This document shows positions 11,577 to 31,672 of a stretch of 43,809 nucleotides of DNA, piece by piece. The DNA comes from Candidatus Coprovivens sp. (GTDB taxonomy: Bacteria > Bacillota_I > Bacilli_A > RF39 > UBA660), in NCBI GenBank assembly GCA_045654965.1, contig JAZOOK010000155.1, positions 1-43,809 on the forward strand, read 5' to 3'. Every line of letters begins with the position of its first letter. The stretch's first letter is position 1. The notes below the pieces were generated by a model. The model was not told the origin of the DNA. It ran no database searches and saw nothing but the letters and a program-made list of their open reading frames with translations. The position numbers and the translations under genes were made by a program.

Positions 11577-11780
11577 TTATCCACAAATTAGTTGTGGATA
11601 TGTGGATAACTTTTTGCACATGTTAATTTATAAATTGTGGATTATGTGGATAAATAGGGGAATGGCCCTTTTTTTAGGTGTTCGTCTGTTAGTATTTTTG
11701 TGAATAAACTGTGAATACTATTTTTTTCTAAAATTAGTCCTTTTATTTTTCCACAGGTTGAGTTAAAATATTTGTACACA
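11577..11780. other. oriC part 1: DnaA-box cluster upstream of dnaA
   Basis: Consensus boxes at 11577-11585, 11601-11609, 11645-11653 and 11699-11707; near-matches at 11593, 11636, 11710 and 11747. Gene orientation flips here. Confidence 0.92.
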
Positions 11781-11799
11781 AATGGTTCGAAGTGGGGTG

Positions 11800-13170
11800 A
11801 TGGAATTGAATTTTGATGATATTTGGACAAAAGTCTTGGATATTTTAAGAGAAGAACTTAGTCCAATGTCTTTTAATACTTGGATTCAACCTACTAAGTT
11901 ACATAATATTACGGATGATAAAATAACTTTGTTAGTAGAAATGCCTTTAGCTAAGAAAATAATAGAAAAAGCTTGTAAAGATTATTTGATTAATGCATTT
12001 ACTACTGTTTTAGGGGAAGAAAAGACTATTGAGTATGTTTTAGAAGAAGAAATTACTGATAAAACTGAGAATTTAGTTAGTAAAGTTGTAGATAATAAAG
12101 AAACTCCTAGTGTTTCTAGTAAAATATTTGAAAGTAATTTAAATAAAGCTCTTACTTTTGAAAATTTCGTAGTAGGGGATACTAATAAATTTGCTAGAAC
12201 TGCTGCTTTTGCAGTAGCTGAATCTCCAGGAACTTTGTATAATCCTTTATTTATATATGGTAAAAGTGGGTTAGGTAAGACTCACTTGATGCATGCTATA
12301 GGGAATTATATTAATGAAACTAATAAGAATTTAAAGGTTTTATATACTACTAGTGACGATTTCTTAAAAGATTTTACAGGGATTGCTAGTAATAGTGGGA
12401 ATTCTGCGGATTATGCCAACGATTTTATAGATAAATATAGAAATATAGACGTTCTTATAATAGATGATATTCAATATTTAGTTGGTGCAGATAAAACACA
12501 AGAAGAGTTTTTCCACACTTTTAACCATTTACATACTAATAAAAAGCAAATAATAATAAGTTCAGATAGATCGCCTGAAGACCTTAAATTATTAGAAGAG
12601 CGTCTTAGAAGCCGCTTTGCTTGGGGACTTCCTGTAGATATATATCCTCCAGATTTTGAATTAAGATGTAGGATTGTAAAAGAAAAAATATCTAAACTTA
12701 CAATAGCAAGTAAAATGACTGATGATGCTATAGAATATATTGCACAAAACTGTGATACTGACGTTAGAGCATTAGAAGGAGGAATTGCTAGATTAAGTGC
12801 TTATACTTCTATGATTGTTCCTGATATTATAGATGTAGAGTTTACTAATGAAGCATTAAAAGACTATATAAAGACTAATCCTTATGTATCTAATGATATT
12901 GCTAGTATTCAAAAAGCAGTTGCAGATTACTATAAATTAACTGTAGAAGTACTAAAAGGTAAGAAAAGAAGTGCTAATATAGCTTATCCAAGAATGGTTG
13001 CTATGTATATGTGTAGAACATTAACTGATCAATCTTTCCCTAGAATAGGGCTAGAATTTGGTGGTAAAGACCATTCTACAGTAATTCATGCAGTTGATAA
13101 GATAACTGAAGATTTAAAAACTAACAGTCAATTAAAAGAAATTATTAATGAAATAAAATCTAAATTATAA
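11800..13170 (+). CDS. dnaA: Chromosomal replication initiator DnaA
   Basis: YNPLFIYGKSGLGKTHL, LIIDDIQ, RLRSRF, GGKDHSTV motifs. Confidence 0.98.
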   Translation: MELNFDDIWTKVLDILREELSPMSFNTWIQPTKLHNITDDKITLLVEMPLAKKIIEKACKDYLINAFTTVLGEEKTIEYVLEEEITDKTENLVSKVVDNKETPSVSSKIFESNLNKALTFENFVVGDTNKFARTAAFAVAESPGTLYNPLFIYGKSGLGKTHLMHAIGNYINETNKNLKVLYTTSDDFLKDFTGIASNSGNSADYANDFIDKYRNIDVLIIDDIQYLVGADKTQEEFFHTFNHLHTNKKQIIISSDRSPEDLKLLEERLRSRFAWGLPVDIYPPDFELRCRIVKEKISKLTIASKMTDDAIEYIAQNCDTDVRALEGGIARLSAYTSMIVPDIIDVEFTNEALKDYIKTNPYVSNDIASIQKAVADYYKLTVEVLKGKKRSANIAYPRMVAMYMCRTLTDQSFPRIGLEFGGKDHSTVIHAVDKITEDLKTNSQLKEIINEIKSKL

Positions 13171-13173
13171 AGT

Positions 13174-13300
13174 TGTGGGTAAGTTCAATGTTATCCACAT
13201 AGTTATTCATAGGCTTTTGGCCCTATAATTGTGGAGAAAAATGGAGTTATCAACATAATCCACAGCATAATAATAATAATTAATATAAAAAATAATATAA
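13174..13300. other. oriC part 2: DnaA boxes, DnaA-trio repeats and AT-rich unwinding element
   Basis: TTATCCACA at 13191-13199; tandem TTATCAACA-TAATCCACA at 13247-13264, then GC, (ATA)4 at 13267-13278 and an AT-only tract. Confidence 0.88.
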
Positions 13301-13316: not shown

Positions 13317-14435
13317 ATGAAATTTACAATTGGAAAAAATTTATTATTAGAAAATTTATCTAATGTTGTTAAAGCTATTTCTACTAAAAATATAATACCT
13401 ATATTAAATGGTGTTAAATTCGAATTAAATGATGAAGGATTATTTTTAACAGCTAGTGATAGTGAATTAACAATTAGAGCATTTATAGGAAAAAAGGAAA
13501 TTACTAATGTAGAAAAAGAAGGATCTATTATTATTCAAAGTAAGTATATTTTAGATATTATTAGAAAAATGCCATCTGATACTATTAATTTTGAATTAAT
13601 GGATGGTTTAAAAATAAAAATTTATTCAGATAATTCACAATATGATTTAAATTGTTTAGATCCTAAAGAATATCCTAGTTTAAAATTAGAAGAATCTAAT
13701 AATCCTATAGTAGTAGATGGAAATACATTTAAAACTATTATTAGTCAAACTGCATTTGCTATATCTACACAAGAACTTAGACCTTTACTTACAGGTTTAA
13801 ATTTTAAAATAGTAGGTGATGTATTTGAATGTATTGCTACAGACTCATATAGATTAGCTAAAAAGAATATAAAACTTAATGTTCCTTCTGAAGAAGAAAT
13901 AAATATTGTTATTCCTGGTAAAAATATTATGGAATTAGATAAAATCATTTCTGACGAAGAAAACGTTGAAATGCATGTATTTAGCAACAAAGTGTTGTTT
14001 AAATATAAAAATATCATATTCCAAAGTAATTTATTATCTGGAACATATCCTAATACTTCTAATTTAATACCTAATGACTTTGCTATTATAGTTAATACTA
14101 AGTTAAATGCTTATGAAGGAGCTATAGATAGAGCTGCTTTATTAACTCAAAGTAAAGATAAGAATATTGTTAAAATGAAAATTAAAAATAATCAAATGAC
14201 AATAAATTCTTATGCTTCTGAAATTGGTAAAGTTGAAGAAAAATTAAACGTAGAAACATCAACAGATGCAAATATTGATATTTCATTTAGTGCTAAATAT
14301 ATGTTAGATGCATTAAAAACAATGAAAGATGAAGAAATATTAATATTATTAAATGGTGAAGTTAAACCAATAGTTATTAAATCTATGACAGATGAATCAC
14401 TAATTCAATTAATTTTACCTATTAAAACTTATTAA
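13317..14435 (+). CDS. dnaN: DNA polymerase III beta clamp
   Basis: ATDSYRLA and C-terminal LILPIKTY; synteny. Confidence 0.98.
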   Translation: MKFTIGKNLLLENLSNVVKAISTKNIIPILNGVKFELNDEGLFLTASDSELTIRAFIGKKEITNVEKEGSIIIQSKYILDIIRKMPSDTINFELMDGLKIKIYSDNSQYDLNCLDPKEYPSLKLEESNNPIVVDGNTFKTIISQTAFAISTQELRPLLTGLNFKIVGDVFECIATDSYRLAKKNIKLNVPSEEEINIVIPGKNIMELDKIISDEENVEMHVFSNKVLFKYKNIIFQSNLLSGTYPNTSNLIPNDFAIIVNTKLNAYEGAIDRAALLTQSKDKNIVKMKIKNNQMTINSYASEIGKVEEKLNVETSTDANIDISFSAKYMLDALKTMKDEEILILLNGEVKPIVIKSMTDESLIQLILPIKTY

Positions 14436-14446
14436 TTTTGATAATT

Positions 14447-14481
14447 AGAACACTAATAATAGAAAAGTGTTCTTTTTTTTT
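14447..14481 (+). terminator. Intrinsic terminator after dnaN
   Basis: AGAACACT...AGTGTTCT followed by a long T run. Confidence 0.8.
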
Positions 14482-14496
14482 GCAAATAACTTATAA

Positions 14497-14523
14497 ATCG
14501 ACAAAAGTAGTCTTTTTTCGACA
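14497..14523. promoter_or_regulatory. Candidate Spo0A boxes upstream of comK
   Basis: TTCGACA at 14517-14523 (reverse of TGTCGAA) and ATCGACA at 14497-14503, 20 bp apart. Confidence 0.45.
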
Positions 14524-14574
14524 TATTTTGGGGTTATAAGATTGGTAAATTTTGGAAAGAAGGAGGTTTTGTGC

Positions 14575-15030
14575 ATGGATTCATATGAAATTAATAAGGA
14601 AACGGTTGCATTAATTCCAAAAGATGAAAATACTACTATTGTTTATGAAGTGGATAACTCTTTTGTTATCAACAAACCTACATTAAAAATAGTGGAAGAA
14701 AGTTGTGAGTACTTTGGTAGTTCATTAGAAGGGAGACAGATAGGAACATCTAATTTAGTTGGTTTTACTCATAAAGTTCCAGTTATAATAGAAGAAAGTT
14801 TCAATTTAATATTTTTTCCTACTGCATCACCTAAGAACGAAGAATGTACATGGTTGGCTTATGAACATATTTTTAAACCAGATAGCTTTAAAGATAAGAC
14901 AATTTTAGAGTTAAAAAATGGTAAAAAAATAATAGTAAATGTTTCAACTCCGATCATTCATAATCAACTTTATAGATGCTCTAGATTAAAAGAATCTTTA
15001 ATGATGAGAAAAATTAACAAAAATGACTAA
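14575..15030 (+). CDS. comK: ComK-family competence transcription factor
   Basis: SYEINKETVALIP, KIVEESCEYFGSSLEGR, HKVPVII, FFPTASP..ECTWL, NGKKI..NQLYR match B. subtilis ComK as recalled (SYEVN, SCRFFGSSYAGR, HKPPI, FPT, CGWI, NQVYR); AGGAGG RBS. Confidence 0.88.
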   Translation: MDSYEINKETVALIPKDENTTIVYEVDNSFVINKPTLKIVEESCEYFGSSLEGRQIGTSNLVGFTHKVPVIIEESFNLIFFPTASPKNEECTWLAYEHIFKPDSFKDKTILELKNGKKIIVNVSTPIIHNQLYRCSRLKESLMMRKINKND

Positions 15031-15037
15031 AAATGTC

Positions 15038-15065
15038 AAAAAAGCTACCTTACGTGGCTTTTTTT
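15038..15065 (+). terminator. Intrinsic terminator after comK
   Basis: AAAGCTAC-cttac-GTGGCTTT followed by a T run. Confidence 0.7.
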
Positions 15066-15066
15066 G

Positions 15067-15075
15067 TGGTATAAT
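15067..15075 (+). promoter_or_regulatory. Extended -10 promoter for recF-gyrB-gyrA
   Basis: TGgTATAAT immediately after the comK terminator. Confidence 0.6.
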
Positions 15076-15142
15076 TACTTTGAGGTATAGGAGTACTCAA
15101 AAAACACTTTTTTTTATTATCGGTCGTAAAAGAGGCTTAAAA

Positions 15143-18146
<3,004 letters not shown>

Positions 18147-31466: not shown

Positions 31467-31478
31467 AACTCTATATTT

Positions 31479-31672
31479 AGCAATGAAGGAAAGAGTACCT
31501 TTATCAAATATTATAGAGAGATTCTGGTTGGTGGAAAGAATTATAGAGGATATTGGGAACATGGCTCTGGAGTTAAAGCGTATATTTCGCGTTAAGAAAT
31601 AAAGTGTATGATAATTCATAAACTAAGGTGGTACCGCGGGTTTTTCTCGTCCTTAGATTATGAATTTTTTTT
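31479..31672 (+). ncRNA. T-box riboswitch, Met (AUG) specifier
   Basis: AGTA, AGAGAG and GGTGGAA stem I motifs; GAAC-ATG-G specifier at 31561-31563; T-box AAGGTGGTACCGCG at 31625-31638; metG downstream. Confidence 0.9.

Follow-up and report, generated by a model that had tools for sequence, protein, structure and literature searches.

ComK is the master regulator of competence and of the K-state in Bacillus subtilis, where it is a protein of 192 amino acids encoded far from oriC; its DNA site is a dyad of the form A4-N5-T4. To our knowledge, nearly all that is known of ComK comes from Bacillus, Listeria and Staphylococcus. In pneumococcus, competence control genes lie close to the origin and respond by dosage to replication stress. 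In Bacilli, the genes at the origin form a string in the order dnaA-dnaN-yaaA-recF-gyrB-gyrA, in which yaaA carries the S4_2 domain.

The available portion of one report (PMC3297582) describes direct binding of Spo0A to the comK promoter of B. subtilis. According to the part of PMC3485338 that was available, TGTCGAA flanked by A/T is a core box for Spo0A that functions in both Bacillus and Clostridioides; it is carried by the spo0A and sigH promoters, and auto-regulation of Spo0A has been described for Bacillus and C. difficile.

comK and its place in the origin string

The window, the whole stretch of 43,809 nucleotides that was analyzed, comes from a Candidatus Coprovivens genome with DNA of ~27% G+C. 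The host order is a group of uncultured, AT-rich gut Bacilli with genomes of 0.6-2.4 Mb, near Candidatus Coprovivens MAGs of order RF39. Pfam searches of the window identified dnaA, dnaN and recF, followed by gyrB and then gyrA. The sequence-only reading of this DNA had placed comK between dnaN and recF with these same neighbors, and this arrangement was confirmed. The features of the locus are as follows.

11782-13170: dnaA (Pfam search of the window)
13317-14435, + strand: dnaN, DNA polymerase III beta clamp, upstream neighbor of comK (Pfam DNA_pol3_beta, _2 and _3, E 4e-36 to 6e-40)
14447-14481, + strand: intrinsic terminator after dnaN, stem AGAACACU/AGUGUUCU, 11-nt loop, 8 U (by folding)
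14498-14503, + strand: box 1, TCGACA (by sequence; ATCGACA at 14497-14503 matches 6/7 of the Spo0A-box complement)
14517-14523, + strand: box 2, TTCGACA (by sequence), which on the opposite strand reads exactly TGTCGAA, the core box of Spo0A
14535-14540, + strand: TATAAG, candidate -10 hexamer for comK transcription, separated from box 2 by 11 nt
14561-14566, + strand: Shine-Dalgarno sequence AGGAGG of comK (by sequence)
14575-15030, + strand: comK, 151 aa, ComK family (PF06338)
15038-15066, + strand: intrinsic terminator after comK, AAAAAAGCUAC / GUGGCUUUUUU (by folding)
15067-15075, + strand: extended -10 TGGTATAAT for recF-gyrB-gyrA (conserved motif)
15079-15101, + strand: small hairpin with an AGGAG-like loop, close to the 5' terminus of the recF leader (by folding)
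15143-16249, + strand: recF, downstream neighbor of comK, true ATG at 15143

The comK gene lies within an open reading frame of 14542-15030, with its likely ATG at 14575 behind the Shine-Dalgarno sequence. The product matched the Pfam ComK model PF06338 with an E value of 3.9e-43 and a score of 147.3 bits, the cut-off being 22.3, over positions 2-150 of 152, in agreement with the earlier claim of a full-length homologue, and a whole-genome scan with this model returned one match. Thus, 14575-15030 is a genuine, single-copy gene for a ComK-family transcription factor. The protein resembles B. subtilis ComK in belonging to the same family over the whole PF06338 domain and in being encoded by a single copy; unlike its 192-residue counterpart, it comprises 151 amino acids, with nothing beyond the Pfam domain at the tail. 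Identity within the genus was 65-84%. Of 306 ComK candidates, 282 were at E <= 1e-5, and PF06338 was found on all 120 candidates among the matches listed, the few named ones being called "competence protein ComK"; databases already label these proteins ComK. A ComK model matching the 151-aa protein was not found in NCBIfam, nor was a solved relative found by sequence search of the PDB.

The position of the gene sets it apart from B. subtilis comK, which is far from oriC. GC skew switched sign at ~10.5-12.5 kb in the window, and DnaA boxes with at most one mismatch numbered 49 against 16.6 expected, with clusters at 11577-11755 and 13174-13264. From the latter, the dnaA-dnaN cluster and the second of the origin, comK is separated by ~1.3 kb. 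A scan of the window found no DnaA box in the comK promoter, and control of comK by DnaA was rejected on this ground. The surrounding genes and their order are those of the Bacilli origin string, and B. subtilis-like synteny continues further on with dnaX, ybaB, recR, pth, mfd, a spoVT-like gene, metS, ksgA, yabG, spoVG and yabP. The locus differs from that string in that the slot of yaaA is filled by comK, which has a promoter and terminators to itself. It is similar to the origin-proximal competence control of S. pneumoniae in that the gene for a competence regulator adjoins oriC, and differs from it in that the regulator belongs to the ComK family and not to the ComCDE/ComX system. No paper placing comK in the dnaN-recF slot was found in the literature.

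The arrangement is not peculiar to this assembly. ComK was present in 24/26 genomes of the same genus, in 57/61 genera of the family and in 121/121 sampled genomes of the order, two of which had one in-frame stop. When one genome per genus was examined, the dnaN-comK-recF order was found in 51/56 genera (a count that leaves out G079, a ComK-positive genus of the family sample); one locus was cut, and in the other four genera comK had gone from the locus yet was retained elsewhere. By sample, this order was found in 25/29 loci other than our own, in 24/26 named loci, the remaining two being cut at comK, and in 42/45 further genera. Six of 19 further regions also had it, including that of the sole genome from the second family of the order, and two more were cut after dnaA-dnaN-comK; nine of the 11 misses were genomes that belong to other families of the class, and the remaining two were G033 and a contig of the genus without a tblastn match. 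The yaaA gene, which had been claimed to be absent from this locus, was not found elsewhere either: no S4_2 match was found in the window genome (90% complete), and none was above the cut-off in five relatives. In two outgroup families, an S4_2 gene fills exactly the dnaN-recF slot.

Terminators and the recF promoter

Predicted folding and covariation supported the earlier claim that terminators flank comK, and motif conservation the claim that recF-gyrBA has a restart promoter of its own. Downstream of dnaN, 8 U follow an 8-bp stem at 14447-14473 (dG -8 kcal/mol, z -1.9), and a hairpin with a T run, differing in its stem sequences, was seen in most of the 22 aligned loci of the genus. The structure after comK was stronger, with an 11-bp stem at 15038-15064 running into a U run (dG -10.8, z -3.8) and none of 200 shuffles folding as well; compensatory changes in this stem were visible across most of the 22 loci. 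It is on this folding and on the compensatory variation in the 22-locus alignment that both terminators are supported. Neither was listed by a simple consensus promoter/terminator scan of the window, which also did not single out the recF extended -10 and in which promoter-like sites showed no excess (67 versus 69 in shuffles). RNAalifold on the entire comK-recF spacer alignment recovered the small leader hairpin and missed the terminator because of alignment gaps. With a rough heuristic of a hairpin and U tail, terminators were called in 48/81 spacers after dnaN and in 46/81 after comK, some of the latter calls being due to the hairpin in the recF leader. Flanking terminators are thus secure for the genus, but not for the whole order. 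These data support the view that comK is a self-contained cassette with a terminator on each side.

The open reading frame listed for recF begins too far upstream, at 15023: Pfam SMC_N first appears at residue 43 of this long frame, and recF of relatives aligned by tblastn from the ATG at 15143. Ahead of recF, the motif TGNTAYAMT was present in 39/39 unique loci and in 41/42 further loci. The distance from its end to the recF ATG was mostly 64-69 nt and otherwise 73-78 nt, with one locus at 33 nt. Unlike in the Bacilli origin string, recF would therefore be read from its own extended -10 and would not be cotranscribed from upstream, as far as sequence can indicate. Between this motif and recF, the leader hairpin kept five pairs in 21-22 of the 22 genus sequences, and its stems compensate between lineages (for example AGGTA..TACCT, TGTA..TACA and AGGCGT..ACGTCT). 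The comK leader from 14541 was unstructured (dG -2; 199/200 shuffles folded at least as well). In a transcript that reads through from upstream, a U-rich stretch could pair with the Shine-Dalgarno sequence, but its z was 0.05 and the genus does not conserve it, so a hairpin masking the ribosome-binding site is not supported here. RNA contigs of relatives, 90-99% alike and mostly below 95%, overlie parts of dnaN, recF and gyrB and leave comK uncovered.

Spo0A-type boxes upstream of comK

The comK promoter is dominated by two to three phased, direct Spo0A-type boxes, which distinguishes it from that of B. subtilis comK. Box 1, which the genus alignment shows to be conserved, starts 20 nt ahead of box 2, and nowhere else in the 1.79-Mb genome (G000) do two TCGACA sites lie on one strand within 45 nt of each other. 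At least one box was present upstream of comK in 22/23 genus loci, 11/16 other loci and 20/42 further genera. Across 59 spacers, one per lineage, TTCGACA was present in 28 upstream of comK and in none downstream. Distances from GACA to GACA upstream of comK were 10 (27 times), 20 (13 times) or 21 (once), with no others. The repeats, TTCGACA(A/T), lie on the coding strand, and the array stops 11 nt short of a -10-like hexamer, for which the genus consensus is TA+AAG (22 loci) and which in other genera often reads TGnTATAAG or TGnTATAAT. Exact boxes were absent in 22/42 more distant genera, and in most of these nothing beyond degenerate, phased repeats of GACA or TTCNACA is left. Where comK has been relocated, it kept boxes in at least two of the four genera (L126 and L127, with GACA boxes that are exact or phased), and degenerate 10-bp repeats were seen in L014 and L133. 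Genome-wide, 22/119 TCGACA sites fell in non-coding DNA against ~8.6 expected, a modest enrichment obtained with a crude ORF caller.

The factor that would read these boxes is encoded in the lineage together with other sporulation genes. Spo0A_C was found in 5/5 genomes and Spo0A in 59/61 genera. In G000, Spo0A (C184:33911-34672; Spo0A_C E 2.1e-32) matched the DNA-bound B. subtilis domain 1LQ1 with an E value of 1e-22, with ERSIRSAIE aligning to ERAIRHAIE in the same stretch. TCGACA was present within 250 nt upstream of spo0A in 29/33 relatives (32 boxes versus 0.56 expected), in the same orientation as at comK and with ~60-fold enrichment; in G000, a box precedes spo0A by 62 nt and a SigF/G-like sigma gene by 46 nt. 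A box upstream of spo0A fits the auto-regulation of Spo0A described for Bacillus and C. difficile in the available part of PMC3485338.

These boxes resemble those of the tandem 0A-box promoters (abrB, spoIIG, spo0A and sigH) in matching TGTCGAA exactly, flanked by A/T, when the complementary strand is read, in being head-to-tail repeats at one helical turn and in recurring upstream of the lineage's own spo0A. The likeness extends to B. subtilis comK, whose promoter has Spo0A sites according to the available portion of PMC3297582. Unlike in the characterized 0A-box promoters, the last box is only 11 nt before the -10, a geometry without a match in the available parts of PMC3485338 and PMC3297582. 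A box that ends at this distance sits in the core promoter and fits repression equally with activation.

DNA-uptake genes and competing explanations

The sequence-only reading had pointed to the late competence genes and to mecA and comF as checks on a competence role, and these fared differently. ComEA (SLBB and HHH_3), comEC and holA form an intact operon in G023, where comEC scored 273 bits against the TIGR00361 cut-off of 190; ComEC was found in 5/5 genomes and in 56/61 genera, and in G000 ComEA/ComEC was represented only by a fragment at a contig end. None of the three outcomes that the sequence-only reading had named as refuting it was thus observed: the match to the ComK HMM is strong, the position recurs throughout an order, and comEA and comEC are present. 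In these incomplete MAGs, for which absence of a protein means that it was not found, there was no match to MecA (PF05389; 0/5 genomes, with B. subtilis and L. lactis positive as controls), to ComFC (TIGR00201; 0/20 genomes of the order at E <= 1e-5) or to CoiA (0/31 genomes), and DprA was found in 0/5 genomes and in 1/61 genera. This sets the lineage apart from B. subtilis. The signs of a ComG-type pseudopilus were ambiguous: a PilB-type T2SSE ATPase of 546 aa adjoins an A24 prepilin peptidase, and Tad-type pilus clusters were present. A two-domain T2SSF protein of the ComGB/PilC type was found in 2/5 genomes (only G026 and G036) and not in G000, G023 or G018. PurH and pyrF are markers of de novo purine and pyrimidine synthesis; they were found in 0/24 genomes of the order versus 7/13 other families. 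With MecA, DprA, ComFC, CoiA, purH and pyrF all not found, classical transformation is doubtful. When the 220 nt that precede comEA were inspected by eye in 20 genomes, no shared motif was seen; in DNA this AT-rich, scans for A4-N5-T4 would be uninformative.

The explanation that we favor, and hold to be probable, is that comK became frozen in the dnaN-recF slot with its transcription gated by Spo0A~P, as suggested by promoter sequence and synteny. Under this explanation, comK would have taken the slot from yaaA in the ancestor of the order and been kept there since. The TTCGACA repeats, read as the complement of TGTCGAA, would be Spo0A boxes, through which Spo0A~P, and hence starvation or entry into stationary phase, would gate comK as at the B. 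subtilis comK promoter, with the MecA/ClpCP layer of B. subtilis absent from the circuit. Activation seems likelier than repression as the sign of this effect, since the comK promoter lacks a -35 hexamer and has the boxes spread over that region. The terminators would shield comK from the constitutive transcripts of dnaA-dnaN and recF-gyrBA. The position beside the origin would be explained most simply as an insertion frozen in a highly stable gene string, with no need for a selected link to replication, and ComK would presumably turn on the remaining DNA-uptake kit (comEA-comEC) together with other genes.

The reading of the boxes has to be weighed against binding by ComK itself, which would then regulate its own gene through an altered site, or by another regulator whose half-site is similar, or against their being UP-like or -35-like elements. 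TCGACA departs by one base from TTGACA, the -35 consensus; DNA would also be bent by A-tracts in a 10-bp phase; and exact boxes occur in only about half of the distant genera. However, the C at position 2 was favored, with 53 TCGACA sites to 13 of TTGACA and a consensus of wwTTCGACAAAwTT, which argues against a plain -35 hexamer; the spacing between the last box and the -10 is also 11 nt rather than 16-18 nt, ComK is known to bind a dyad and not a direct repeat, and the enrichment of the motif upstream of spo0A points to Spo0A. We therefore regard a regulator or element other than Spo0A as unlikely. We give still less weight to the proposal that the origin position was itself selected, so that comK copy number is tied to replication initiation or fork stalling and stress lifts ComK past its threshold. 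The short distance to the dnaA-dnaN cluster, the retention of the position in most genera, the precedent in pneumococcus and the DnaA boxes nearby (two with one mismatch within comK and a perfect one within recF in the window, and perfect boxes in or beside the comK spacer of L049, L050 and L053) are in keeping with it. Yet dnaA, dnaN, recF and gyrB stay together in most bacteria, so a passenger gene would also stay; the conserved elements of the window's comK promoter are of the Spo0A type and include no DnaA box; four genera retain comK after it has left the locus; and a switch of this kind requires an autocatalytic loop, whereas the alignments of the genus and of other lineages showed no dyad resembling a K-box ahead of comK. 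The earlier suggestion of an effect of early trapping in the forespore is not moot, since the lineage carries sporulation genes; an origin-proximal gene occupies both compartments, however, and no specific forespore effect follows.

What ComK controls in these bacteria bears on two further readings. One, which we consider possible although on balance doubtful, is that ComK is a relic of its family that no longer serves DNA uptake and runs another stationary-phase or sporulation-linked program, comparable to the growth arrest of the K-state. The scarcity of DprA, MecA, ComFC and CoiA, the restriction of the ComGB/PilC-type protein to two of five genomes and the lack of a tail past the Pfam domain are in line with such a relic. 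Conversely, the comEA-comEC-holA operon is intact, ComEC is widespread in the family, a prepilin peptidase has a PilB-type ATPase as its neighbor, and there are Tad-type pilus genes. ComK is universal in the order sample and must therefore do something that is kept. The other reading, put forward tentatively and rated as improbable, is that ComK is a Spo0A-gated switch for nutritional uptake of DNA without recombination, to which the origin position may add an input from the state of replication. It was suggested by the retention of ComK, ComEA and ComEC where DprA, ComFC, CoiA, MecA, purH and pyrF were not found; if it holds, starvation would open a nucleotide-scavenging route via Spo0A.

In this large order of uncultured gut bacteria, ComK in a minimal form belongs to the universal core genes; its gene is fixed in the origin string and preceded by a very simple, conserved promoter made of Spo0A-type boxes. 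Promoter sequence points to a compact link from Spo0A to ComK that would operate without the MecA/ClpCP/ComS layer. For annotation, the presence of ComK and ComEC alone is no ground for inferring that a bacterium is naturally competent. Collectively, these findings raise the question of which genes ComK targets in a lineage in which proteins for the recombination step of transformation were not found.

The comK cassette in the origin region

The window is the origin region of the genome. The sign of the GC skew switches at about 10.5-12.5 kb, and DnaA boxes are clustered upstream of dnaA (11577-11755) and in the dnaA-dnaN gap (13174-13264), with 49 boxes of no more than one mismatch in the window against 16.6 expected. 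The cluster is two-part and flanks dnaA on both sides. Two one-mismatch boxes were also seen inside comK (14649-14674), and one perfect box inside recF (15307-15315, minus strand).

Features of the dnaA-gyrA region of the window
rsmG, mnmG, mnmE, jag, yidC, rnpA: minus strand
11782-13170, plus strand: dnaA
13317-14435, plus strand: dnaN
14447-14481: predicted terminator after dnaN, 8-bp stem then 8 U (dG -8, z -1.9)
14498-14503 and 14518-14523: TCGACA box copies, starts 20 nt apart, conserved in the genus alignment
14575-15030, plus strand: comK, 151-aa ORF
15038-15066: predicted terminator after comK, 11-bp A/U-extended stem into a U run (dG -10.8, z -3.8; 0 of 200 shuffles equal)
15067-15075: extended -10 element TGGTATAAT, directly after the comK terminator
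15143-16249, plus strand: recF
after recF, plus strand: gyrB, gyrA

The 151-aa ORF, which has an AGGAGG Shine-Dalgarno (SD) sequence 8 nt ahead of its ATG, matched the Pfam ComK family (PF06338; E = 3.9e-43) over model positions 2-150 of 152, as predicted by the sequence-only reading of a full-length ComK homologue between dnaN and recF. It was the sole ComK match in the genome to which the window belongs (G000; 1.79 Mb, 214 contigs, 90% complete). A ComK protein search returned 306 candidates, 282 of them at E <= 1e-5; among the matches listed, PF06338 was found in all of at least 120 relatives, and the few relatives with a name are called "competence protein ComK", a Candidatus Coprovivens MAG being the source of one. 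A sequence search of solved structures found none related to ComK.

A consensus terminator scan of the window listed neither of the hairpins flanking comK. Both hairpins recur in most of 22 unique same-genus loci with stem sequences that differ in the alignment with compensation, and these compensating stems are the better evidence for the two predicted terminators. Across the order, a rough heuristic detected a hairpin with a U-tail behind dnaN in only 48 of 81 spacers, and behind comK in 46 of 81. The extended -10 element, as TGNTAYAMT, was present in all 39 unique loci and in 41 of 42 further genera. The folds and the 22-locus alignment thus indicate that the proposed cassette of terminator, comK, terminator and restart promoter is real in the genus.

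The recF leader (15076-15142 in the window) is near-constant in length across the order, mostly 64-69 nt from the end of the -10 element to the recF ATG, otherwise 73-78 nt, and 33 nt in one locus. It opens with a small hairpin (15079-15101) that has an SD-like loop, AGGAG or GGGAG, and a stem with compensatory changes between lineages. The leader had no Rfam match at gathering score; the hairpin may serve as a 5' stabilizer.

Spread of the gene order and the slot of yaaA

ComK was found in 24 of 26 genomes of the genus, in 57 of 61 genera of the family, and in all 121 high-quality genomes of the order, representing 74 genera. Synteny was scored by tblastn of the DnaA, DnaN, ComK, RecF and GyrB proteins of the window on loci fetched from relatives (L numbers). 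The order dnaN-comK-recF was recovered in 25 of 29 loci other than the window's own; of the rest, one was cut by a contig end, one had dnaN beyond the fetched flank and two held comK alone. The same order was seen in 24 of 26 loci of named MAGs, among which ComK identity fell to 37%, and the other two were cut at comK. Of the records that carry names, the nearest are MAGs entitled "uncultured Bacilli bacterium" and "Candidatus Coprovivens sp.", a genus assigned to order RF39, family CAG-1000, in PMC8035907.

Among 19 further regions, six had the order, including one genome of the order's second family, and two more were cut after dnaA-dnaN-comK; the 11 without it comprised nine genomes belonging to other families within the class, the genome G033, and one contig from the genus without a tblastn match. 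The order was also present in 42 of 45 further genera. A family sample of one genome per genus covered 56 of the 57 ComK-positive genera (the genome G079 was left out), and showed the full order in 51, a cut after comK in one, and comK elsewhere in four. In these four genera recF is no longer next after dnaN, and comK lies on another contig. Thus, dnaN-comK-recF is a trait of the whole order and not a position unique to this assembly.

In one genus member (L084, G016:C4), an insertion of about 2.07 kb separates dnaN from the comK promoter, with the order kept. In two of the genera with a moved comK (L014 from G033 and L126 from G065), comK follows a gene whose C-terminus is similar in the two and, by eye, resembles a DNA-ligase tail, which suggests one common relocation event.

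The yaaA domain, S4_2 (PF13275), had no match in the G000 genome and none above cut-off in five relatives, in keeping with the absence of yaaA noted earlier. Two outgroup families of the class carry an S4_2 gene of 66-69 aa (E = 1.8e-24 and 4.8e-24) that occupies the space between dnaN and recF and runs into the start of recF. Since the domain is without a match here and its gene fills the slot in these outgroups, it is fair to describe what evolution has produced as "comK in place of yaaA". A third outgroup (G042) has a dnaN-recF gap of 240 nt and comK elsewhere; a 36-aa ORF in this gap (L103:1330-1440) resembles, by eye, part of the outgroup S4_2 proteins and may be a decayed yaaA.

Candidate Spo0A boxes at the comK promoter

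In the genus alignment, a conserved TATAAG lies 11 nt after the second TCGACA box and is followed by a conserved leader and SD. Read on the opposite strand, TTCGACA is exactly TGTCGAA, the Spo0A core box, which with A/T flanks is recognized by the Spo0A proteins of Bacillus subtilis and Clostridioides difficile (PMC3485338). The G000 genome holds 119 TCGACA sites on both strands, and only at comK do two on the same strand lie within 45 nt of each other. Twenty-two of the 119 are non-coding, against about 8.6 expected with non-coding DNA put at 7% of the genome by a crude ORF caller.

At least one box was found at 22 of the 23 loci from the genus, at 11 of the 16 others and in 20 of 42 further genera, and exact boxes in relatives are spaced by 10 or 20 nt without exception. 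When 59 one-per-lineage spacers were compared, 28 had TTCGACA upstream of comK, and between comK and recF it never occurred; neighbouring GACA cores were 10 (27 times), 20 (13 times) or 21 nt (once) apart, and at no other distance. TCGACA accounted for 53 sites versus 13 for the -35 consensus TTGACA, and the consensus of phased sites was wwTTCGACAAAwTT. Among the genera with a moved comK, L126 and L127 carry exact or phased GACA boxes upstream of it, and L014 and L133 only degenerate 10-bp repeats. The boxes go with the comK cassette rather than with the locus.

The Spo0A_C domain was detected in five of five genomes and 59 of 61 genera. G000 Spo0A could be aligned at E = 1e-22 to 1LQ1, the B. 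subtilis domain bound to DNA, with ERSIRSAIE opposite B. subtilis ERAIRHAIE, a stretch that we take to be the recognition helix. TCGACA was present no more than 250 nt upstream of spo0A in 29 of 33 relatives; these 32 boxes, against 0.56 expected from the genome-wide frequency, lie mostly 84-117 nt ahead of the start, 31 of them on the coding strand. Spo0A auto-regulation and the placing of boxes at C. difficile spo0A and sigH, as reported in PMC3485338, are mirrored here. At the B. subtilis comK promoter, direct binding of Spo0A~P at activating and repressing sites has been described (PMC3297582). Collectively, the presence of Spo0A, its likeness to 1LQ1, the boxes upstream of spo0A and the B. 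subtilis precedent argue that the comK-promoter array is a set of candidate Spo0A sites, a reading we favour with some confidence. Because the promoter lacks a -35 hexamer and the boxes span about -50 to -24 of the inferred start, activation by Spo0A would suit it; repression would be compatible too.

Elsewhere in G000, a box lies 62 nt ahead of spo0A (C184:34734, minus strand), a perfect box 46 nt ahead of a 217-aa SigF/G-like sigma gene (C7:18406, plus strand), and a tandem ACGACA-N4-TCGACA 24 nt ahead of a cold-shock gene (C7:11115, minus strand).

Origin-side position and the role of ComK

The position of comK beside oriC is real and old, and the sequence-only reading had proposed that it ties the gene dosage of comK to replication initiation or stalling. 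We consider this improbable. Nothing in the window ties comK to DnaA or replication, since its promoter contains no DnaA box, and it is Spo0A that the conserved elements of control suggest. A cassette in the vacated slot of yaaA would ride along without selection for position. The dnaA-dnaN-recF-gyrB string is among the most stable known, so that passive carriage of a comK cassette, once it had entered the slot left by yaaA, would be the default view. The further idea that comK is trapped early in the forespore adds little, because both compartments contain a gene that lies near the origin. Searches of full texts brought up no paper, as judged by title and abstract, that deals with comK in RF39 or in the dnaN-recF slot, and none tying comK gene dosage to the replication origin in this setting.

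In some more distant lineages (L049, L050 and L053), DnaA boxes without a mismatch (TTATCCACA or its complement) stand between the comK promoter and ribosome-binding site, or just downstream of comK; such boxes are absent from the dnaN-comK and comK-recF spacers of the window.

The expected competence genes were found in part. A comEA-comEC-holA operon was seen in G023, with ComEC scoring 273 bits for TIGR00361 (cut-off 190). Also present are a 546-aa PilB-type ATPase gene adjoining a prepilin peptidase gene, and Tad-type pilus clusters; ComEC was found in five of five genomes and 56 of 61 genera. All genomes searched were MAGs, and absence denotes not found in those searched: MecA in none of five genomes, DprA in none of five and in one of 61 genera, ComFC in none of 20 genomes of the order, CoiA in none of 31, and a two-domain PilC/ComGB-type protein in none of G000, G023 and G018. 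In several genera (L209, L212, L218, L219 and L221), comEA directly follows an ftsW/rodA-type gene, and a 10-12-bp palindrome (AATAATCTC..GAGGAGATT-like) covers its SD; this may be a terminator and translational mask at once.

Matches to purH (PF01808) or pyrF (PF00215) were obtained in 0 of 24 genomes of the genus and order (G000-G022, G037) and in 7 of 13 other families of the class, and the lineage probably depends on outside nucleotides. The window also holds a T-box leader (31474-31657; 118 bits) ahead of a HAD-type hydrolase gene, a dUTPase-like gene and metS, an unusual set behind one T-box.

The sporulation genes carried include Spo0A, SpoIVA in three of five genomes (not G000), and a spoVT-like gene, yabG, spoVG and yabP in the window; RF39 is predicted to include both species that sporulate and species that do not (PMC10868615). 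Classical transformation is doubtful because the recombination kit is thin. DNA uptake for a different purpose, or some other stationary-phase programme, may be what ComK controls.
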